Below are positions 41,705-54,397 of a stretch of DNA of 64,000 bases, piece by piece. Below the pieces are notes generated by a model that was not told the DNA's origin, did no database searches, and worked only from the letters and a program-made list of their open reading frames with translations. The stretch lies in NCBI GenBank assembly GCA_022508305.1, contig JAFLVM010000001.1, positions 770,341 to 834,340 on the forward strand, written 5' to 3'. Made by a program: the position numbers and the translations under genes. This DNA comes from Clostridiales bacterium (GTDB lineage: Bacteria; Bacillota; Clostridia; Christensenellales; CAG-314). Numbering within the stretch: position 1 is the stretch's first letter; every line of letters starts with the position of its first letter.

Positions 41705-42738
41705 AATTCCACCTCGCCACTCAAAGCCGCCAAGCCCAATTTTACAACCTCGTCCCGCAGCTTTTCATCTTGAAGGTCCATTGCAAGTTTGACGAACTCG
41801 CCGCGCAAGGATATTTCTTGAGCTAAAGACTGCAAATCAACCTTAGCGGTCGTTTCATCTTTAACCCTAAGGGCAAAAAATCTGTCTTCTAAAAGCTGTT
41901 TTGCCACCATTTCTAAGTGCAAACCGTCGCAAGCGGCGCCGCAAAACACCAAATTGAGATAATTTCGCGGCGAGACGTCGGCGATCACGTCCGTTATTGC
42001 CCGTTCTGCCGCCACGTCGCTTGCCAAGTTCGTTACGTCAACTTTTTTGGTGACTACCGAGCGTATTGCTTGACGAACGAAGCGAATTTTGTCCGCGTCC
42101 GTATCAATTTCCACAAATCCCGTGTCTGCGCACTCGTCAAAACCGCGAGTTTCCAATGCTCCGCTGTAGCAGGCGCGTACTCTACCGAATTTGTGCTCCG
42201 AAAAGCCGTGTCTGTGTCCAAGCGCAACGTAATTTGCGCCGCAACTACTCAAAATGCGTTTGTCTATCACGCCGTAACCGTCGTCGTCCACGTCGCCGTG
42301 CAGCACTACCACGTTGTAGCGATCGGCGTTGAGTGACAGCGACTGCCACTGTTCTACGTCGTTTTTCCCCAACTCACGCCCGCAAACGGTAACGTTGCCG
42401 AGGTCGTAGTAGGTCCAGTCGTCGCCGAAAAATCTAATTTTCGGACAAAGTTGCTTGAGCCTGTCGTAGGGAGCGTTGCCGCCGTGATTTCCGCGCAGCA
42501 CGAACCAAGTTGCCGAGCTTGAACTGACGACGTCCGCAACACTTTGTATTGTTTGTTGGGTTGCGGAATTGCCGTCGAACAAATCGCCAGCAACGATTAT
42601 GGCTGAAACGCCGTTGTTGTTGGCATACTCGGACAGGTTGCTGAGCGACATTAGCAACTCCCGCCTACGCAAAGCCGCGTCTTTTACGCCCACAAGCGGC
42701 GAATCCAAATGAATGTCTGCTGTGTGAATTAATTTCAT
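41701..42738 (-). CDS. SbcD/Mre11-like DNA repair exonuclease (YhaO-like metallophosphoesterase)
   Basis: MKLIHTADIHLDSPL, VAGDLFD, GNHG and GHRH motifs. ATGA overlap with the downstream ATPase. Confidence 0.85.
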   Translation of the reverse strand: MKLIHTADIHLDSPLVGVKDAALRRRELLMSLSNLSEYANNNGVSAIIVAGDLFDGNSATQQTIQSVADVVSSSSATWFVLRGNHGGNAPYDRLKQLCPKIRFFGDDWTYYDLGNVTVCGRELGKNDVEQWQSLSLNADRYNVVVLHGDVDDDGYGVIDKRILSSCGANYVALGHRHGFSEHKFGRVRACYSGALETRGFDECADTGFVEIDTDADKIRFVRQAIRSVVTKKVDVTNLASDVAAERAITDVIADVSPRNYLNLVFCGAACDGLHLEMVAKQLLEDRFFALRVKDETTAKVDLQSLAQEISLRGEFVKLAMDLQDEKLRDEVVKLGLAALSGEVEL

Positions 42739-42749
42739 AATTGCCTTTT

Positions 42750-42778
42750 ATTTTACCATACCCCGTCAAAACTATCAA
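42750..42778 (-). promoter_or_regulatory. Candidate promoter of the sbcD/sbcC-like operon (very short leader)
   Basis: Minus strand: TTGATA (42778-42773), 17-nt spacer, TGgTAAAAT (-10 at 42755-42750). The -10 ends only 11 nt before the ATG at 42738. Confidence 0.4.
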
Positions 42779-42875
42779 TATTTTGTATAAATAATAACTA
42801 AAATGTCTAATAGGCGTTAAATTAAAAAATTGCCGTCTCTCTCAGAACGACGTTACCGATAATTACCACACTTTT

Positions 42876-42904
42876 ACAAAATAAAATAGCGCCCCAATAG
42901 GCGC
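42876..42904 (-). terminator. Rho-independent terminator of small ORF 1
   Basis: Minus strand: GCGCC-tattgg-GGCGC followed by TATTTTATTTT. Confidence 0.6.
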
Positions 42905-42984
42905 ATAACCGTCATATATGTAAACTGTACTACTCAAATGCATTTGCATATCGCGGTACAGGTGTTGTAGAAAAGTTGCTGCTA

Positions 42985-43107
42985 TTAGTTGCTCATTTGA
43001 CTGCATACCATAGCATAGCAATATGAAAGAGTGTACTCTGCGTCCAATTGTTGGAACTCGCGATCGTTTTGATTTATCTCTTCATAGCAATCTGTAGTTA
43101 AAAACAT
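42985..43107 (-). CDS. Small acidic protein, 40 aa (MFLTTDCYEEINQNDREFQQLDAEYTLSYCYAMVCSQMSN)
   Basis: Not in the ORF track. SD AAGGAGG lies 8 nt before the ATG (43107). It has its own TTGCTA-16-TATAAT promoter and its own terminator. Hand-translated codon by codon. Confidence 0.5.
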   Translation of the reverse strand: MFLTTDCYEEINQNDREFQQLDAEYTLSYCYAMVCSQMSN

Positions 43108-43163
43108 TTTTCTTACCTCCTTGTTGATATTATAAATTAGCTCGTTGCTTTATTTACCTGACT

Positions 43164-43191
43164 ATTATATAGTTTTTTCGTAAAATAGCAA
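43164..43191 (-). promoter_or_regulatory. Promoter of small ORF 1
   Basis: Minus strand: TTGCTA (43191-43186), 16-nt spacer, TATAAT (43169-43164). Confidence 0.55.
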
Positions 43192-43392
43192 GCATTTTTT
43201 CGTATAAAACAAACACAATCCTGCTATTTTAGCTTAAAAATTCGAATTTCCGCAGCGAATTTTACTAAAATGGACAGTAAATTTAAAATAAAATCACCGA
43301 ACGACTAAATAAAAGTTTGCGGATTTAATCGGAAATTCTTTTAATTTTTCACACAAGCAACAGGGCTTTAATTTTGCTAAAATTTAATTGTA

Positions 43393-43428
43393 CAAAAACG
43401 CCCCGCAAGGCTTAAAATTCCTTGTGGA
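43393..43428 (-). terminator. Rho-independent terminator of small ORF 2
   Basis: Minus strand: CCACAAGG-aattttaag-CCTTGCGG (7 of 8 bp) followed by GGCGTTTTTGT. Confidence 0.55.
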
Positions 43429-43455
43429 GCAGTTAGTGTCGAATTGGGGCGCAAA

Positions 43456-43578
43456 TTACTTGCCGAGTTGTACGCAAGCATTTGTAAGCGCCAAGTTGAA
43501 TACGTACGCGCGTTGTTCGTCGCTAATGTCGCATGCGTCCATTTCTTCGTTGTATTCATGATATCCATATTTAAGCAT
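43456..43578 (-). CDS. Small acidic protein, 40 aa (MLKYGYHEYNEEMDACDISDEQRAYVFNLALTNACVQLGK)
   Basis: These are the last 40 codons of track ORF 43456-43998. The ATG at 43578 is preceded by CAGGAGGTAAACGCA. The rest of the 180-aa track ORF runs antisense to the AraC gene and is rejected. Confidence 0.5.
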   Translation of the reverse strand: MLKYGYHEYNEEMDACDISDEQRAYVFNLALTNACVQLGK

Positions 43579-43746
43579 TGCGTTTACCTCCTGAAAATTA
43601 TTTGCAAATCGCTGCCTGTTGCGGCTGTTTACGTGTTTATTATATTGTCGTTTTGAAAAAAGAGATTGCATTATCTTGCATATTACTAACACAATACTGT
43701 TATTTTGGTTTACTTTTTTGTTTTTGTGTTGTATTATGTTTATGTA

Positions 43747-44664
43747 ATGAACTACCACTCTATTAACGACAAAAACTATCAACAGTACAAAGAAAAGATA
43801 TCTCACGGCACGCCCATGCTTCCGTTTGCGCATTACCACACCAACGTAAGCGAACTGTTGCCTTTTCAGCCCATTCACTGGCATGAGGAAATGGAAATCA
43901 TCAAAGTGCAAAGTGGCAAAGGCATCGTTTCCGTTGACGGCGTCAGGTACACGGCGGAAGTCGGAGATATTTTCATATTGCGCCCCTTCGTTATGCACGC
44001 CATCAACAAGCTTGACGACAACGAGATGATTGCCGACGTAATTGTGTTCAATTTGAGGCTTTTGGAATCGGGCGAGGCAGACGTGTGCACGCTAAAATAC
44101 TTTGCACCGCTACTGAACGAAAAACATTCCGTGCCTTGCATTGTGCGCTCTACCGACAGTTGGTACCGTCCGTTTGATCAAAGCATGACGGCGATACTTG
44201 CATGCGACACTAACAATGAAGGAGCGGAGCTGGACATAAAAGCCAACTTGTACTGGATGTTTTACCACATCTACAACAACAGATTGATGAACGTTACGCC
44301 CAATATTGCCGAGGACAAACGGCTTTATACGGTGAGGCGCGCGTTGGAGTACATTCGTGCGGAATACATGAACGAAATTACAATTGAAAAAATCGCCAAA
44401 CACTGCGGCTACAGCGAATTTTACATGATGAAGCTGTTTAAGCAGTTTACAGGTTCAAGCTGCGTGGACTACGTCAACAACTACCGCCTGACCGTTGCGG
44501 GTAGGCAGCTTCGCGACACGGACGACGACGTCGCCACCATCGCCTATCAAGTGGGCTTCAACAACGTGTCCTACTTCAATCGCCAATTCAAACGCCAATA
44601 CGGCATGACCCCTCGCGAATTCCGTTCCTCGCCGGACGGGCACCTCGAAGGTAGGGACCAGTAA
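43747..44664 (+). CDS. AraC family transcriptional regulator (cupin sensor domain + HTH)
   Basis: N-terminal cupin-like HWHEEMEIIKVQSGKG and C-terminal AraC HTH (IAKHCGYSEFYMMKLFKQFTG...VGFNNVSYFNRQFKRQYGMTPREFR). Start at 43747. Confidence 0.88.
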   Translation: MNYHSINDKNYQQYKEKISHGTPMLPFAHYHTNVSELLPFQPIHWHEEMEIIKVQSGKGIVSVDGVRYTAEVGDIFILRPFVMHAINKLDDNEMIADVIVFNLRLLESGEADVCTLKYFAPLLNEKHSVPCIVRSTDSWYRPFDQSMTAILACDTNNEGAELDIKANLYWMFYHIYNNRLMNVTPNIAEDKRLYTVRRALEYIRAEYMNEITIEKIAKHCGYSEFYMMKLFKQFTGSSCVDYVNNYRLTVAGRQLRDTDDDVATIAYQVGFNNVSYFNRQFKRQYGMTPREFRSSPDGHLEGRDQ

Positions 44665-44710
44665 TTAAAAATTTGAATAATCAAGATTGAAAATAATTTA
44701 CCCGCAACAG

Positions 44711-44742
44711 TTGCCGTTAACCATTGACGGCAATTTGATTTT
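44711..44742 (+). terminator. Rho-independent terminator of the AraC gene
   Basis: TTGCCGT-taaccattg-ACGGCAA followed by TTTGATTTT. Confidence 0.6.
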
Positions 44743-44752
44743 GCAATATAAT
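44724..44752 (+). promoter_or_regulatory. Near-consensus promoter for tRNA-Arg
   Basis: TTGACG (44724-44729), 17-nt spacer, TATAAT (44747-44752), 45 nt upstream of the tRNA. Confidence 0.6.
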
Positions 44753-44797
44753 ATCTACACAAATAAAATACCGTCATCTTGACTTAAATTTATATTT

Positions 44798-44874
44798 GTT
44801 CCCGTGGCGCAATTGGATAACGCAATCGCCTCCTAAGCGATAGATTGGCTGTTCGAACCAGCTCGGGAACGCCA
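44798..44874 (+). tRNA. tRNA-Arg (anticodon CCU), CCA encoded
   Basis: GTTCCCG acceptor pairs with CGGGAAC. Anticodon stem ATCGC/GCGAT with loop CT-CCT-AA. T-arm GGCTG-TTCGAAC-CAGCT. 77 nt. Confidence 0.92.
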
Positions 44875-44907
44875 AAAAACCGCAAGATATTAAATCTTGC
44901 GGTTTTT
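44875..44907 (+). terminator. Rho-independent terminator of tRNA-Arg
   Basis: ACCGCAAGAT-attaa-ATCTTGCGGT (10-bp perfect stem) followed by TTTTT. Confidence 0.85.
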
Positions 44908-45141
44908 CATAATGTTTACACAATCCTCCGTCGTCAAACGGACACAATAACAAAACTTTCGCGGAGTTTTGTTAATTTTTCGCATAGGGTTTGATGAAAT
45001 AAAAGTTTGCCCCCAAATCGCAAATTTGTAAATTTTACTTAACAATAACCAATTTACTTCAGTATATAAATAAAATCCTATTTGTGGACATATTTTCTCG
45101 GCATCTGATGCCACAACAAAAAATATTTTAAGAGGTTTAAT

Positions 45142-45795
45142 GTGTACAAAAGAATTTCAAAAAAACAAAGTTCTATAGCGCGGCAAAGAGCAACGAAAAT
45201 TATTCAAGATGTGCGAAAAATATTAAAGACAAAATACGTTTTCGCGCATAGATTGGTTGGTTCCGGTGCTTGGGGAACAATGATTGAAGATGAAAACGGC
45301 GAATATGATTTGGACTATCAATTATTATTGACAGTCAATTCCCATGTTTATAAACAATCCAAAGACTTTCCTCCCCCTACTGAAATCAAACAAGACTTTT
45401 TGTCGGCATTTGAGCAGGTGAAAAAAGGTCAGGAAACTTTTCAAAACTCCACTACCGCCATAACTCTAATAAACAAGGATAGCAAGCCTTACCATATTGA
45501 TTTTGTTATTATCAAAACTTTTCCCCAAAATGATTTTATAATACGAAGAAACAACAAAAAAGAGACACCCTCGGAAAATGAGTTTACTTGGAATGAATTG
45601 CCGCAATGGAATGATGCCTATGACTATTTTAGAGAATTGTCACCTACGGAAAAGCAAAACTTGATAGAAAATAAAATTATTCCTGCGAAACAAAAGGAAA
45701 AAGCGAAATCGGAAAGCGATCCCTCAAAAATATCGTCTTCTGCACTGTTTGTAAGAGAGGTTAACAATTATAGATGTCAGCAAAAGAAGAAATAA
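45142..45795 (+). CDS. Pol-beta-superfamily nucleotidyltransferase (MNT/SMODS-like), 217 aa
   Basis: GTG start after AAGAGG. LVGSGAWGT (G-S at 45259-45264), EYDLDY (D-x-D at 45307-45315) and a third Asp in YHIDFVII (45499-45501) give the NTase-fold triad. AT-rich. Confidence 0.65.
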   Translation: MYKRISKKQSSIARQRATKIIQDVRKILKTKYVFAHRLVGSGAWGTMIEDENGEYDLDYQLLLTVNSHVYKQSKDFPPPTEIKQDFLSAFEQVKKGQETFQNSTTAITLINKDSKPYHIDFVIIKTFPQNDFIIRRNNKKETPSENEFTWNELPQWNDAYDYFRELSPTEKQNLIENKIIPAKQKEKAKSESDPSKISSSALFVREVNNYRCQQKKK

Positions 45796-46340
45796 TTGAC
45801 TATAATTTGCACGCAAACGAAATCGAGTATTGGATTGCCTTAAAAGGCGAAACAAAATATATGCGTTTTGCGAGTTTGTTAAAAGCCAACGGAATAGCCG
45901 TTGAGTGGAACGTATTGAAAGACACGTATAGATACGATAAGCGGTTAATTGTTAATATCTTCAAATATCTTTCGTTTTTTGAAGAATTTTTACGGGCGCA
46001 AATTTGGAACGTTTCTAAAACAAGTTACAAAAAGTTAGAGGGCGAATTTTTGTCAAAAGCAATAGACGAAGTTGTTAGACTAAAAGAACAAATTCATTAC
46101 AAAGGGTTTTCAGTTGAACTCCTATCTAAAAACAAAGAATTAATAAACCACTTGCGAAATTGCGTCAGCCATAACAAAATAATTTTAGAAAGCCAAAAAG
46201 ACGAATGCAATATAAATGAAATTCTTGTCGCATTTATGCAAACTTTGCCCAAAGCTTACCAGTATGGATTTGCTTCCGACATAAAAAAATGTAGTAAGGG
46301 TTTAAACATTCCATCCTGTTTCGTTATTGAGTTGCAATAA
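45774..46340 (+). CDS. HEPN-domain protein, Abi_2 (AbiD/AbiF)-like, 188 aa
   Basis: YRYDKRLIVNIFKYLSFFEEFLRAQIW resembles the Abi_2 core. HLRNCVSHNKII carries the R-N-x3-H HEPN motif (46155-46172). Overlaps the NTase gene by 22 nt. Confidence 0.6.
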   Translation: MSAKEEIIDYNLHANEIEYWIALKGETKYMRFASLLKANGIAVEWNVLKDTYRYDKRLIVNIFKYLSFFEEFLRAQIWNVSKTSYKKLEGEFLSKAIDEVVRLKEQIHYKGFSVELLSKNKELINHLRNCVSHNKIILESQKDECNINEILVAFMQTLPKAYQYGFASDIKKCSKGLNIPSCFVIELQ

Positions 46341-46488
46341 AAACCAAACGAACATGAAGTGCCCATCTACTTTATTAACATTAGATAACTCAAACGATAA
46401 TTATAAAGAGCAGACGACATTTTGGAAAAGCAATTACTGATTTTTGCTGCACTTAAAATATTAAACAATAAAGGATAAACTATTTGCT

Positions 46489-48714
46489 ATGCCTAATCAA
46501 AAATTTACAATTTCGCTAAATGTAGAAAATATCGGTCCTCACTATGATGGCAACAAACTTTCTTTTACACATGAGGTCGATTCCAATAAGAGTGTATTTT
46601 TTGCTGTAAATGGTACGGGTAAGTCTTTTTTAAGTAAAACATTCAGACTTGCAGAAAATTTGGAAACACATACCGATGATTTGCTTACTATCGGAAGGAA
46701 TCGTGCCGATTTTACTTTTAGTATAAATGCCAATAACGTTGAAAAACATTTGTCTGTTGTTTTAGAAAAGTACAAGGAACCTGTTATAACTAATACAACA
46801 GGATTACTGTTTCACACATTTAATAGCGATTTCGTTGAAGAAAACATTAAACCGCGCAATTACAATCCAAATGGTGATATTGACGGATATATTCTTGGTA
46901 AAGCTCAGATTGATTTGACGGATGAAAAATTACGAGAGGCAAATCTTGTTGTTGAATTAAATGTATTAAACAATGAGATCGAGTCAATTATATCAAAGGC
47001 AAAATCAGTCTTGCGCAACGCCGGCGTAACATCCAATACTACCGAAATGGCACTTATTACACGAAAAGAATTAGAGCAACTTAAATCCTTTGATGGCATA
47101 CTAACTTTTAAAGAAGTTTTAACTCAATTAGAAAAATTACGCAAAGTGCCGGAAAATCTTTCAGATATTTCTATTCCTAAATTTGACCTTGACATAAGCT
47201 TTTTAGACAATATTGCTGATGAATTAATTACTAGTTACCCTAAATCCGAATGGGACGAAGAATTTGTACGCTACTACAAAGAAAACAGACCTTTTATAGA
47301 AGCCGGCTTGGACAAAATAAATTCCGACGTAAATTGCTGTCCCTTTTGCCAAAGAACATTTGATGAGCAGGCTCTACAATTAATTCAACAATATTCTAAT
47401 TATCGTAATAACCAAGAAGCTAAAACTATTGCTCTTTTGGACACGTACGCGAAAAAAGTAAAATCGCTAATTGACTTGTTGAAAGATGGTAATGCACAAA
47501 TAGTAGCAGCTCAAAATCAATTAAATAAGTTGAAAGAATATTTTCCCTCACTTAAAGACTATACTTTAAGTCTTATAGATTTGAATGAGGAAAGCATAAA
47601 ACTGTTTACTGACATACACAAATTGTTAGAAATTAAAACAAACAACCTTGTATTAACTTTTGATGAATCTTATAACCTAATTAAATGGCTGAAACTGTTT
47701 CTTGACACAGCGCGTAAAAATTATACTCTTAATGCATCCATTCTCGAAGCTGCAAATAGATCTAAAAATAATACAGCCTGCGAGAGACTTGAATTACGAC
47801 GCAAATTGTGTAAGGCAAAGTATATAGAATGCTCATTAGAACTAAAAGATAAATTTGCCAAAATGTCATCACTGCAATCGCAATTAGAAAGTCTCAGATT
47901 AAGAATTAAAGAAAAGGAAGAACAAGTTAAAGTAAGTAAAAGAGACAAAGTTTATTCAACATTAACGTCATTTCTTAATGTTTTCTTTAATGGTAAATAT
48001 ACCATTGATAAAGAAACCTTTGAAATAAATTTTTGGGGCAACAAGGTTGGTCAAAGAGCGTCTCGAATTTTAAGCGATGGAGAAAAAAGTATTGTCGCGT
48101 ATTGCTACTATCTCGCAACTACACATTTGTTGATCGAACGGGAATCTGATTACGATAAATTGTTTTTTATCATAGACGACCCAATATCCAGTATGGATTT
48201 TCACTATGTTTATATGGTTGCCCAAACTTTACGAGATATTAAAAATTTATTTGACATTTCTACACATGAAAGGATTTGGGTATTCACGCATAATATGGAA
48301 TTTTTGAGTATAATCAAAAGAAATCACATTCTTAAATATGCGTTTATAATTAAACCCGGAAAAATAGAAGAAATTAACCATAATCTTTTGATGCCATATG
48401 AAAGTCATCTGACTGATATTGTCAAAATTTCAAAAGGAGAAATACTCCCCAACCATAATACTGCAAATTCAATTCGACATGTATTAGAAACCGTGTGCCA
48501 GTTTGAGTTCCCGGAGAAAGGAATAGAAAAATACATAGAGGAAAACGAAATTCTTGCTAAGAATGCGTATATTTATTCTATTTGCCAAGATTTGTCTCAT
48601 GGAAATTTGCGAAACCAACCACCATATTCAGCAGATGTCTTAATAAGTGCATGTGCTTCCGTTGTTGAATTTATGACTTCAAAATATAAAGGACAAATTG
48701 ACGCTATTAAATAA
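46489..48714 (+). CDS. AAA_13-type ABC ATPase with coiled coil, CxxC hook and a PrrC/RloC-like anticodon-nuclease C-terminal domain, 741 aa
   Basis: Walker A NGTGKS (46612-), long coiled-coil-like region containing CCPFC (47335-47349), signature LSDGEKS (48070-), Walker B FFIIDDPISSMD, VFTHN, then SIRHVLE (R-x3-E) with His 37 aa further on (LSHGNLRN). Confidence 0.7.
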   Translation: MPNQKFTISLNVENIGPHYDGNKLSFTHEVDSNKSVFFAVNGTGKSFLSKTFRLAENLETHTDDLLTIGRNRADFTFSINANNVEKHLSVVLEKYKEPVITNTTGLLFHTFNSDFVEENIKPRNYNPNGDIDGYILGKAQIDLTDEKLREANLVVELNVLNNEIESIISKAKSVLRNAGVTSNTTEMALITRKELEQLKSFDGILTFKEVLTQLEKLRKVPENLSDISIPKFDLDISFLDNIADELITSYPKSEWDEEFVRYYKENRPFIEAGLDKINSDVNCCPFCQRTFDEQALQLIQQYSNYRNNQEAKTIALLDTYAKKVKSLIDLLKDGNAQIVAAQNQLNKLKEYFPSLKDYTLSLIDLNEESIKLFTDIHKLLEIKTNNLVLTFDESYNLIKWLKLFLDTARKNYTLNASILEAANRSKNNTACERLELRRKLCKAKYIECSLELKDKFAKMSSLQSQLESLRLRIKEKEEQVKVSKRDKVYSTLTSFLNVFFNGKYTIDKETFEINFWGNKVGQRASRILSDGEKSIVAYCYYLATTHLLIERESDYDKLFFIIDDPISSMDFHYVYMVAQTLRDIKNLFDISTHERIWVFTHNMEFLSIIKRNHILKYAFIIKPGKIEEINHNLLMPYESHLTDIVKISKGEILPNHNTANSIRHVLETVCQFEFPEKGIEKYIEENEILAKNAYIYSICQDLSHGNLRNQPPYSADVLISACASVVEFMTSKYKGQIDAIK

Positions 48715-48824
48715 CTTCACTGTTATTGAGTTATTATAAATTCGGCATAAAAGTAATTGCAGATAGTTTCTTTAATAGAAATTACTCTAAAAGCACCTAA
48801 TAATACCGTATCGCCAAGAAAGTC

Positions 48825-48856
48825 AAAAGTCCGTTCCATGTCGGAACGGACTTTAA
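48825..48856. terminator. Bidirectional terminator at the island boundary
   Basis: AAGTCCGTTCC-atgtc-GGAACGGACTT (11-bp perfect stem) lies between the convergent RloC-like (+) and GtrA-like (-) genes. Confidence 0.75.
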
Positions 48857-48872
48857 TTATGGTTAAAGATAT

Positions 48873-51871: not shown

Positions 51872-53218
51872 ATGAAAGACGCAAAACAAATACTAAACGC
51901 GCAATTTGACGAACTTGTAACGTCGTTGCAAAAGGTCGTGTCGTTTAACACCGAAAAGGGTTCCCCCGAAAACGGCGCGCCATTTGGAAAGGATGTAAAA
52001 TCCTGCCTTGACTATACTTTGGGGCTTGCCTCTGCGTTCGGGCTGGAAACGTACAACTGCGACGGCTACGCAGGTCACGCGGATTTTAACGGGAGTACCG
52101 ACGAAGTGTTGGGCATTCTCGGACATCTTGACGTCGTTCCCTCTAAAGCAGAAGAATGGCTGTACCCGCCGTATGCCGGTGAAATTCACGACGGCAAACT
52201 GTACGGGCGCGGAACGATGGACGACAAAGGACCAATGATTGCATGTTTGTACGCAGTAAAGGCGTTAAAGGAAGCAGGTTTCGCGCCTAAAAAGACCATT
52301 CGGCTTATTTTCGGTTGCGACGAGGAAAGCGGCATGCAATGCGTCGAGCATTATTTCAGTAAAATGCCATTCCCCACCGTGTCATTTTCTCCCGACGGAG
52401 ATTTCCCCGTAATCAACCGCGAAAAGGGCATTTACCAATTCAACGTCGTGTGCGGAAAACTGCCTAAAGGGGTAACAATTACGGCAGGCGAACGCGCAAA
52501 CGTCGTACCGTCATTATGCACGGTAACTGCCACTTCACAGGCGTTGAAAGTAACAGTGGGCGAATTGCATGGCGAAATAACCATAGAACAAACAAGCGAT
52601 GGCTATGTCTTCACTTCACTCGGCAAATCGGCGCACGGCAGCACTCCCGACGAGGGCGTAAACGCTACGCACGTTATGTTGAAAATATTGTCGAGCAACT
52701 TCCCCGACAATGCAACGCTACGTTTCCTTGCAGAAAAGGTAATCGACACGACTGGCAAGGCTTGGGGCATTGACCTCTGCGACAAGGAAAGCGGAAAGCT
52801 CACTTGCAATCTCGGCGTACTAAGAACAGCAGCCGACGGAACGCTCACAGCTACCGTAGACATTCGTTTCCCTGTGACCTACAATTGCAAGCAAATGTAC
52901 GAACTACTCCGCGCAAATACTCCAAGTGAATTTGCAATTGTAGAAAACCACATCAGCGAACCGCTACACGTACCGTCGGACAGTAAGCTTGTGACGACTT
53001 TGATGAACGTTTACAACAAAGAAATGAACGTTAATCTTGAGCCACTTGCAATAGGCGGCGGCACGTACAGCAGATGCCTACCCAACTGCGTAGCGTTCGG
53101 ACCGTTGTTCCCCAAAGAGGAACAAACAATCCACATGCCTAACGAATGCGTAGACCTCGTAAACCTCCGCAAAATGGCAGAGCTGTACCTCGAGGCAATA
53201 TACCAACTGGCAAAGTAA
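51872..53218 (+). CDS. pepV: M20-family dipeptidase (PepV/Sapep-like)
   Basis: GHLDVVP, GRGTMDDKGP and GCDEESG motifs. 448 aa. Start at 51872 (GGAG SD). Confidence 0.75.
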   Translation: MKDAKQILNAQFDELVTSLQKVVSFNTEKGSPENGAPFGKDVKSCLDYTLGLASAFGLETYNCDGYAGHADFNGSTDEVLGILGHLDVVPSKAEEWLYPPYAGEIHDGKLYGRGTMDDKGPMIACLYAVKALKEAGFAPKKTIRLIFGCDEESGMQCVEHYFSKMPFPTVSFSPDGDFPVINREKGIYQFNVVCGKLPKGVTITAGERANVVPSLCTVTATSQALKVTVGELHGEITIEQTSDGYVFTSLGKSAHGSTPDEGVNATHVMLKILSSNFPDNATLRFLAEKVIDTTGKAWGIDLCDKESGKLTCNLGVLRTAADGTLTATVDIRFPVTYNCKQMYELLRANTPSEFAIVENHISEPLHVPSDSKLVTTLMNVYNKEMNVNLEPLAIGGGTYSRCLPNCVAFGPLFPKEEQTIHMPNECVDLVNLRKMAELYLEAIYQLAK

Positions 53219-53245
53219 ATAAATTACAAAAGGAAGAAAAAACAA

Positions 53246-53518
53246 ATGGTAAAACCTAACGTAGTATATGACGAAGATGATTTGGAGTTTTTGGAAGTTC
53301 TGAAATATGTTGTAGAACATCACTGTGAATTAGACTTTGACTATAAAGGTAAAGCGTACAGAATAGAATTTCTACACGGTAAACTTTGCGCTTATCTGAA
53401 TGAGGCAAACACTCCCGAATACTCTTTTGAAGATTTGGACGATTTGATGGAACACTATCTTGTGGATGGCGTACCGTTCAAGGACATAATCCCAGAAATA
53501 GACGCTTATGGCGCTTAG
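53246..53518 (+). CDS. Hypothetical acidic protein, 90 aa
   Basis: ORF with an AAAAGGAAG SD, 27 nt after the pepV stop. No family recognised. Confidence 0.5.
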   Translation: MVKPNVVYDEDDLEFLEVLKYVVEHHCELDFDYKGKAYRIEFLHGKLCAYLNEANTPEYSFEDLDDLMEHYLVDGVPFKDIIPEIDAYGA

Positions 53519-53541
53519 TCATCTTCAATTTAAACAGTAAC

Positions 53542-53579
53542 AAAAAAACGCGGCAGAGAGTTCTGTCGCGTTTTGTTTT
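53542..53579. terminator. Bidirectional rho-independent terminator
   Basis: AAAAAAA-CGCGGCAGA-gagt-TCTGTCGCG-TTTTGTTTT lies between convergent genes ending at 53518 (+) and 53608 (-). Confidence 0.85.
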
Positions 53580-53607
53580 AATTGTTAGTTTTGATAATTT
53601 GAGACAA

Positions 53608-54321: not shown

Positions 54322-54397
54322 CGAGGTGTAGCGCAGATGGTAGCGCGCTTGGTTCGGGACCAAGAGGCCGTGGGTTCAAATCCCGCCACTTCGACCA
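54322..54397 (+). tRNA. tRNA-Pro (anticodon CGG), CCA encoded
   Basis: Acceptor CGAGGTG/CACTTCG. D-stem GCGC/GCGC. Anticodon stem CTTGG/CCAAG with loop TT-CGG-GA. T-arm GTGGG-TTCAAAT-CCCGC. 76 nt. Confidence 0.92.

Follow-up and report, generated by a model that had tools for sequence, protein, structure and literature searches.

Type I systems of cyclic oligonucleotide-based antiphage signalling (CBASS) consist of one cyclase and one effector. In the type VII toxin-antitoxin (TA) system HepT/MntA, the acceptor tyrosine of the HEPN protein HepT sits in an Rx4HxY motif and is AMPylated. Antitoxin genes usually come first and overlap the toxin gene. The AbiD/AbiF lineage of HEPN proteins is thought to be ancestral to Cas13. 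Characterised AbiD/F proteins are toxic HEPN RNases that are held in check by a cis-encoded abiF non-coding RNA (ncRNA), which binds the dimer (PMC12373285, where structure 8vz6 is discussed), and AbiD, AbiD1 and AbiF are listed as protein-plus-RNA systems in a 2026 review (PMC13064643). Nucleotidyltransferase (NTase)-type enzymes that constitutively make inhibitory signals have been described in the guard systems Hailong (review PMC13434031), Clover (PMC12265719) and Panoptes (PMC12657218). In Hailong, HalB primes oligo-dA on a conserved tyrosine, and HalA is a transmembrane ion channel (review PMC13434031). Here, these systems are compared with a locus in a 64,000-nucleotide stretch of DNA from a Clostridiales bacterium (contig JAFLVM010000001.1, positions 770,341 to 834,340, forward strand), the whole of which is referred to as the window. 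The locus is an AT-rich island next to a tRNA-Arg gene, and it holds three open reading frames (ORFs): ORF1, encoding an NTase, ORF2, encoding a short HEPN protein, and ORF3, encoding an RloC-like ATPase.

In the initial annotation of this DNA, the three genes were read as one defence module and as a combination that was not recognised among described systems. The comparisons presented here point to a different arrangement. ORF1 and ORF2 in all likelihood form a self-contained, translationally coupled two-gene system, and ORF3 an independent single-gene module that was inserted beside this pair. The island is thus, as far as the sequences tell, very probably a tRNA-Arg-linked defence hotspot in which two separate modules lie side by side. 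The explanation as a whole, with two modules, a HEPN toxin controlled by the NTase and restraint as the favoured mode of control, is considered moderately likely. The pair, not the trio, is the unrecognised part of the island: the lack of a described counterpart stands for the NTase-HEPN pair and not for ORF3, which is already known as an RloC-like member of the PADLOC candidate family PDC-S06.

The strict pairing of ORF1 with ORF2 is the main evidence for the two-gene system. An overlapping ORF2-like gene of 186-188 amino acids (aa) lies downstream of all six ORF1 homologues that were traced (61-88% identity). A wider survey that took a single genome for each species yielded a further 21 loci, found in Christensenella, Treponema, Spirochaetaceae, Clostridia, Anaeroplasmataceae, Acholeplasma, Paracholeplasma, Bacilli and a Methanomassiliicoccales archaeon. 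With tblastn, ORF2-like sequence was found directly 3' of the ORF1-like gene in 35 of 38 loci, and the contigs of the remaining three end at or inside ORF1; an ORF2-like gene is therefore present in every locus with room for it (35/35). Starting from ORF2 homologues, an ORF1-like neighbour was observed in every context retrieved. In the 26 non-redundant pairs, the two genes either overlap, by 11-35 nt (80 nt by one start call), or, in the four most divergent of these pairs, are separated by 1-4 nt. In addition, the pairwise distances of ORF1 and ORF2 are correlated (r=0.88, a value reached in 0 of 2000 Mantel permutations), with faster evolution in the HEPN than in the NTase partner. No model for ORF1 and ORF2 as a system is present in PADLOC, Pfam, NCBIfam or PHROGs, and neither protein has a match in PHROGs. 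A scan of IMG/VR viral contigs found nothing, and a plasmid collection gave no match. A pair of a CD-NTase-like enzyme and an Abi_2 HEPN has no description or published name in open-access papers and preprints, most subscription journals being outside this scope. The ORF1-ORF2 pair is thus apparently both conserved and undescribed.

The association outlasts a reversal of the gene order, which is seen in one bacterial lineage (locus L093) and in the gut phage PV036423. In both, an Abi_2-like gene runs into the start of the gene for a distant NTase homologue, whose catalytic residues are kept. The phage Abi_2-like protein was aligned with the ORF2 profile by hhalign at a probability of 97.5% (E=7e-12). 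The phage is a human-gut member of Ca. Heliusvirales (L129; PV036423.1, 51514-52783). Its Abi_2-like gene (225 aa) overlaps its NTase gene (205 aa), the annotation gives hypothetical proteins for the two, and genes for anaerobic ribonucleotide reductase and a weak match to the PBECR5 nuclease lie in the vicinity. In L093, a strong homologue of the AbiEi antitoxin (L093:5849-6595; E=1e-69), which represents another NTase-type TA system adjoining the pair, lies just downstream of the reversed pair and is followed by a 311-aa gene. The pair is also present in an archaeal metagenome-assembled genome (MAG) of the Methanomassiliicoccales (L036:2936-4088; ORF1 42% and ORF2 35% identity), which points to gut transfer across the boundary between bacteria and archaea. 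In the closest relatives of the locus, L011 and L012 (ORF1 85-88% identity), the DNA of the pair is 84-86% identical to that of the window, and the adjacent backbone AraC gene 76-78% (compared over window positions 43756-46341). This difference hints at a more recent exchange of the pair or at stronger constraint on it. In two loci, a co-oriented gene lies 16-33 nt upstream of ORF1 (L013:5117-5968 and L001:5158-5985), encoding Hypoth_Ymh (HEPN family), on a conjugative element, or KilA-N; these neighbours are not conserved and could be alternative accessory genes.

The surroundings of the pair bear on its role. Some pairs lie in conjugative or integrative elements, together with genes for ArdA, PcfJ/K and rolling-circle Rep, and one is part of a phage genome. 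Together with the TA-like organisation of the two genes, this would fit a module that mainly serves the addiction and stabilisation of mobile elements instead of acting against phages. On the other hand, the pair is chromosomal and beside a tRNA gene in this genome, in L011 and in L012, its neighbours are repeatedly defence genes, and AbiD/F relatives confer phage resistance. A role mainly in addiction is therefore regarded as improbable, and one module may serve both addiction and abortive infection.

ORF1 is, judged from its modelled structure, an active-looking compact enzyme of the cGAS/DncV-like NTase (CD-NTase) type and not a minimal NTase (MNT). No Pfam match was obtained for ORF1, nor any match to NTP_transf_2 or MNT models at E<=1. 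Its N-terminal 150 residues match the PADLOC CBASS models named "oligonucleotide cyclase" (E=2.6e-11). The AlphaFold (AF2) model of ORF1 has a predicted local distance difference test score (pLDDT) of 85 and a predicted template modelling score (pTM) of 0.79. All 48 significant fold matches of this model in the PDB, identified with Foldseek, are CD-NTases or cGAS, and the best of them is CdnB of B. fragilis (BfCdnB; E=1.8e-7, template modelling (TM) score 0.67). The catalytic residues G40-S41, D56-x-D58 and D120 form the arrangement GS...DxD...D; in 92 full-length family representatives G40, S41, D56 and D58 are conserved at 100% and D120 at 97%, and W150, K183 and S199 are conserved at 86-91%. 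Because of these fold matches and the conserved active site, ORF1 is read as a compact CD-NTase. The NTase assignment in the initial annotation is thus correct at the level of the pol-beta superfamily and its GS/DxD/D residues, and an MNT type, as in the MNT-HEPN pairs cited there, is not supported.

The solved CD-NTase and cGAS structures that match the fold exceed ORF1 by about 80-150 residues. In an exhaustive profile search, the ORF1 family comprised 346 cluster representatives, nearly all of 200-235 aa and matched end to end. Since ORF1 has an end-to-end family of its own in this size range, it is not a truncated cyclase. The same kind of search detected no sequence similarity of ORF1 to any solved structure, HalB included. 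Residues 133-152 of ORF1 (window 45538-45597; IIRRNNKKETPSxNEFTWNELP) are among its most conserved parts, and I133, I134, R135, R136, N137, N138 and W150 are invariant within the close clade. This loop is modelled at very low confidence (pLDDT below 50) and is a candidate for a lid that binds the partner or the substrate. HalB-like tyrosine priming was considered on account of the invariant C-terminal REVNNY of ORF1, and it was rejected, as Y210, which does not vary within the close clade, is not conserved across the wider family. In two proteins (P0369 and P0427), ORF1 fragments are joined to LRR/CAP or Dus domains; these apparent fusions look like decayed copies or chimeras that arose in gene calling.

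Within the compact NTase family, a distant branch with at least 474 metagenome hits, mostly from the human gut, occurs without a HEPN partner (loci L054-L123; the largest group is represented by, for example, L095:5001-5666 and L055:5001-5864). Among the neighbours of these solitary NTases are genes characteristic of conjugative elements (DUF6550, TraG-like P-loop) or genes with housekeeping functions (metK, SRAP, DUF1905/DUF1801). In the scan of this branch, 60 of the 80 loci came from one gut lineage with a solitary NTase, and more divergent alignments gave no usable locus scan. The distant enzymes may have a HEPN-independent role, possibly in anti-defence on conjugative elements.

ORF2 is, on its motifs and modelled fold, a short and divergent AbiD/F-type (Abi_2) HEPN protein with predicted RNase activity. 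This reading follows from its Abi_2 matches, its fold match and its invariant RNx3H motif. Pfam Abi_2 is the top match of ORF2 (E=2e-4), and 38 of 47 members of the ORF2 family match Abi_2 at E<=1e-3. The distant partner protein in L093 clears the Abi_2 gathering score (36.5 bits), matches the hidden Markov model (HMM) of the ORF2 family at 3e-18 and also touches Cas13b HEPN models. The AF2 model of ORF2 is all-helical with a pLDDT of 96, and its only meaningful fold match is the AbiF dimer bound to ncRNA (8vz6; TM 0.53, probability 0.77). R128-N129-x3-H133, reported in the initial annotation as an R-N-x3-H HEPN motif beside an Abi_2-like core, is invariant in 26 of 26 partners. The conserved block of ORF2 reads YRYDKRL...FKYLSFFEEFLRA. 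Compared with AbiD/AbiF and its abiF ncRNA, a type III-like TA system, ORF2 shares the Abi_2 N-terminal block and the RNx3H motif, and the PbAbiF-ncRNA complex in 8vz6 is the one structure that it matches; it differs in being about 110 aa shorter than PbAbiF (297 aa), in the lack of an abiF RNA motif at the locus and in the presence of an NTase gene at the antitoxin position. In ORF2, no recognisable CARF, SAVED or STING-type sensor domain was found with Pfam and PADLOC, which gave only Abi_2/HEPN matches.

The organisation of mntA-hepT, in which a leading NTase gene runs into a gene for a HEPN protein with an Rx4H motif, is also that of ORF1 and ORF2, and the initial annotation had raised the corresponding type VII model. 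In such a system, the NTase would covalently nucleotidylate the HEPN protein, for example by oligo-AMPylation of a tyrosine, serine or threonine, and the invariant ORF2 residues Y54, Y65 and Y162 would be possible acceptors. The residue two positions past the catalytic histidine, at which the Rx4HxY tyrosine is located in HepT, is K, R, D, H, E, A or V in the 26 partners and never tyrosine. Moreover, ORF1 has a CD-NTase fold, with CD-NTases as its top structural matches, and is not MNT-like in either structure or Pfam matches, and ORF2 belongs to the Abi_2 family. A type VII mechanism is for these reasons judged quite improbable; if the two-gene module is taken as given, covalent nucleotidylation in any form is still doubtful.

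The features of the island are the following (window coordinates).

44798-44874, plus strand: tRNA-Arg with anticodon CCT, the anchor of the variable region; the same tRNA precedes the pair in L011 and L012.
44875-44907, plus strand: intrinsic terminator of the tRNA gene, an inverted repeat with a perfect 14-bp stem and then a T-run.
44908-45141, plus strand: AT-rich leader of 234 nt, 5' of ORF1, with the ribosome-binding site AAGAGG at 45130-45135.
45142-45795, plus strand: ORF1, 217 aa, with a GTG start six bases past AAGAGG; compact cGAS/CD-NTase-fold nucleotidyltransferase.
45774-46340, plus strand: ORF2, 188 aa; short all-helical AbiD/F (Abi_2)-type HEPN, predicted RNase effector or toxin.
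46341-46488, plus strand: ORF2-ORF3 spacer of 148 nt, not conserved (25 nt in L039), with weak promoter-like sites only.
46489-48714, plus strand: ORF3, 741 aa; RloC-like AAA_13 ATPase of the PADLOC candidate family PDC-S06.
48722-48740, plus strand: imperfect 19-nt copy (16/19) of the ORF2 3' end (46323-46341), found in a repeat search.
48826-48854: bidirectional intrinsic terminator with 12-13 pairs, which marks the end of the island and is shared by the convergent GtrA-like gene.

This layout agrees with that given in the initial annotation, namely an AT-rich island just 3' of tRNA-Arg(CCU) and its terminator, three co-oriented ORFs with a 22-nt overlap between ORF1 and ORF2 and a 148-nt gap without a terminator between ORF2 and ORF3, and a bidirectional terminator at the end. 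The tRNA was identified with ARAGORN and by Rfam (tRNA, 56 bits). The GC content is 0.30-0.36 from about 44900 to about 48850 (about 3.9 kb), against about 0.45-0.53 in the backbone, and no plus-strand terminator-like site was found in the 148-nt gap. The flanks consist of backbone genes, with an AraC-family regulator upstream and a convergent gene for a GtrA-like membrane protein and a glutamyl-tRNA synthetase gene downstream. The absence of an integrase among the island ORFs and of an att duplication, both reported in the initial annotation, was borne out; a duplication of the tRNA 3' end was searched for and rejected, as none of at least 12 nt occurs within 8 kb. The three proteins are identical to annotated entries from a 1.10-Mb contig of a Clostridiales MAG, two hypothetical proteins (ORF1, J1F65_03655, and ORF2, J1F65_03660, in the NCBI annotation) and an AAA ATPase (ORF3). 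Elsewhere in the window, a second AT-rich stretch (42600-43700; GC 0.30-0.37) with only short overlapping ORFs lies upstream of the AraC gene. A dip in GC to 0.35 at 53000-53600, about 0.7 kb upstream of tRNA-Pro(CGG) (54322-54397), could be another small variable region beside a tRNA.

ORF3 is an ordinary RloC-like member of the catalogued candidate family PDC-S06, and tRNA cleavage is its predicted activity. It matches PDC-S06 (PDLC04898) of PADLOC over its full length (E=1.2e-220; residues 4-741 on profile positions 3-748 of 752), with nothing notable differing. Other matches are PrrC in PADLOC (3.7e-15), AAA_13 (4.8e-26) and, weakly, the Rad50 zinc hook (1.6e-4). As in RloC and PrrC, an ABC/Rad50-like ATPase head is combined with a coiled coil that carries a CxxC zinc hook and with a C-terminal R-x3-E...H triad. 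These features had been noted in the initial annotation, and they are invariant in 27 homologues: Walker A (NGTGK), C284-P-F-C287, the LSDGEK signature, Walker B (DDP), the H-loop (THN) and the C-terminal R663-x3-E667...S703-H704. Some sources name the ORF3 homologues "wobble nucleotide-excising tRNase". To our knowledge, PDC-S06 is without experimental validation.

Several observations separate ORF3 from the pair. ORF3-like sequence was found in none of the 41 other tested loci that carry an ORF1-type gene, so that, of the two neighbours placed with ORF1 in the initial annotation, only the ORF2-like gene is conserved. L011 and L012 share the AraC gene and the tRNA with the window and thus represent the same chromosomal site. 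In place of ORF3, an integrase and a glycosyltransferase, or a KAP NTPase on the opposite strand, lie 3' of ORF2 in these relatives, and the nucleotide and translated homology of the window to them extends no further than the stop codon of ORF2. The closest ORF3 homologue (L040, 77% identity) has no pair beside it; it is located directly 3' of a tRNA 3' end and terminator, with a promoter of its own (TTGACT-17-TATAAT) and two integrase genes. In this locus (L040:1-400), the homologue sits right after the tRNA gene (3' end ...GGTTCGATTCCCGGCGGGAGTACCA), and two tyrosine-recombinase genes follow. ORF3-type genes of this lineage therefore appear to travel on tRNA-targeting integrative elements. 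A further homologue with 67% identity (L041-43) is solitary as well and lies among restriction and other defence genes. Given its absence from 41 loci, its replacement in L011 and L012 and its solitary occurrence in L040-L043, ORF3 is not part of the pair. In the window, the 16/19 copy of the ORF2 3' end starts 8 nt past the ORF3 stop, and the two copies bracket the spacer and ORF3. A match as good occurs in only 0.6% of random 60-nt windows of the island, a post-hoc observation, and the bracketing repeat may be the insertion footprint of an ORF3 cassette at the end of ORF2.

A single co-regulated three-gene system, in which the NTase would coordinate two RNases, is very unlikely in the light of these data. 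Such a system would be consistent with the co-orientation of the genes and with the missing terminator between ORF2 and ORF3. It would also agree with a second trio, L039 (about 74% identity; ORF2 75%, ORF3 73%), in which 25 nt separate ORF2 and ORF3. This trio surfaced only in the search from the ORF3 side, and it counts against the two-module reading in that it shows that the adjacency of ORF3 persisted or recurred in the lineage, so that there may be some functional synergy. Of the distinct contexts of the pair, about 27 in all, two are trios. The spacer lacks conservation, PDC-S06 is catalogued as a single-gene candidate system, the solitary homologues (77% and 67% identity) have a promoter of their own, and the ORF2 3'-end relic past ORF3 suggests insertion. 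Because ORF3 does not co-occur with the pair elsewhere, the outcome set beforehand as refuting, the three-gene reading is not supported, and on the comparative sequence data it is largely refuted.

For the remaining two genes, the question is how the NTase and the HEPN protein may be connected. An abiF ncRNA antitoxin for ORF2 was considered and rejected: Rfam at E<=10 gave no abiF motif (RF03085) in the island, and none was present at gathering score in the window and six related loci. The leader at 44908-45141, in which the promoter of ORF1 and ORF2 is presumably located, likewise gave no abiF-type or other known RNA motif (Rfam, E<=10, nothing meaningful). The distance from the end of the preceding gene to ORF1 is just 16-33 nt in several relatives, which leaves no conserved room for an upstream RNA gene. 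The position upstream of the HEPN gene that the abiF antitoxin holds is occupied by the NTase gene, and the only invariant companion of the ORF2 toxin candidate is this catalytically intact-looking NTase, encoded first and translationally coupled.

In the proposed mechanism, ORF2 would be the toxic effector, whose cutting of RNA would lead to growth arrest or abortive infection, and ORF1 would govern this effector by way of its product, a nucleotide or an oligonucleotide. This product would restrain ORF2, so that the NTase would take the role that the abiF ncRNA plays for ordinary AbiD/F proteins. Infection would deplete the product or block its synthesis, and the released RNase would then cleave RNA and abort the infection. 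This logic is modelled on the guard systems Hailong, Clover and Panoptes. Restraint is favoured over activation because no abiF RNA and no sensor domain were found, because the NTase gene comes first and overlaps the HEPN gene, and because the guard systems provide precedents. Given a two-gene module, a non-covalent inhibitory product has, by this analogy, about an even chance. The sequences and models show the folds, the motifs, the strictness of the pairing, the independence of ORF3 and the lack of the abiF RNA; RNase activity and toxicity of ORF2, the nature of the ORF1 product and the direction of its control are what we infer here.

The opposite logic, in which ORF1 senses infection and makes a cyclic or linear oligonucleotide that activates an otherwise inactive HEPN protein, would make the pair a minimal CBASS-like signalling system. 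The fold and sequence of ORF1 are nearest to CBASS cyclases, with the PADLOC cyclase match and the invariant catalytic residues of the GS...DxD...D site, and, as in Type I CBASS, a cyclase-like gene and a gene for an effector-like nuclease form a two-gene operon in defence islands. Unlike the CBASS enzymes of about 290-370 aa, ORF1 has only about 217 aa and lacks about 80-110 residues of typical CD-NTases. CBASS cyclases pair with many effectors in a modular way, whereas the partner here is always the same co-diverging HEPN within the clade. Furthermore, this Abi_2 HEPN has no detectable sensor for cyclic nucleotides (it may have an unrecognised ligand site), and toxicity is intrinsic to the characterised AbiD/F relatives, which depend on an antitoxin (PMC12373285). 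CBASS-like signalling is hence a possible but rather unlikely explanation overall; an activating signal of any kind, with the two-gene module as the premise, is a possibility of slightly better but still low standing.

The explanation favoured here has several points against it in addition to the second trio. ORF2 scores 22.1 bits against the Abi_2 gathering score of 25.6, and in structure it matches AbiF weakly (Foldseek E=0.65, TM 0.53). Distant members of the NTase family exist without any HEPN, so the enzyme can have a HEPN-independent role. Finally, producers of activating signals are the best-known enzymes with the CD-NTase fold, and the direction in which ORF1 would act on ORF2 is therefore drawn from context.

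As in the guard systems Hailong (HalB/HalA), Clover (CloB/CloA) and Panoptes (mCpol/2TM-beta), two genes encode a small NTase-type enzyme and a toxic effector, here a putative one, and the proposed logic is likewise that of a constitutive product restraining the effector. The effector differs in being a predicted soluble HEPN RNase instead of an ion channel, dGTPase or membrane protein. With respect to Hailong, ORF2 has no HalA-type transmembrane channel, and Y210 of ORF1 is not conserved family-wide (HalB being compared by its description in the review). The pair thus departs in one or more defining features from every system that it resembles, that is, CBASS, AbiD/F TA, HepT/MntA and Hailong. 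We rate it as a variant that belongs among the NTase-regulated toxin/effector modules.

A more specific form of restraint can be put forward as a speculative and fairly unlikely idea. ORF1 might make an untemplated short oligonucleotide that fills the site in the HEPN dimer that AbiF fills with its ncRNA. Phage nucleases, nucleotide sponges or changes in the nucleotide pool that remove such an enzymatic "antitoxin RNA" would set the RNase free. If true, the idea would tie together three known mechanisms, namely signalling of the cGAS type, the control seen in type III toxin-antitoxin systems, and the AbiF lineage ancestral to Cas13.

The apparent three-gene system is best described as two juxtaposed modules, and it illustrates that co-orientation and a missing terminator are no proof of one system. 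If the pair works as proposed, it would represent a further, mechanistically distinct form of NTase-controlled immunity, in which a mini cGAS-like enzyme replaces the RNA antitoxin of an AbiD/F HEPN. The same toxin scaffold could then be switched from RNA-based to enzyme-based control, and the pair would be a very small nucleotide-gated RNase module of about 400 aa in total. It brings together enzymes of the cGAS type and the AbiF lineage ancestral to Cas13, in a design logic that is increasingly familiar. The pair family is common in gut anaerobes, Mollicutes and spirochaetes and is also found in one archaeon and at least one gut phage, and its spread may shape phage-host dynamics in the gut.

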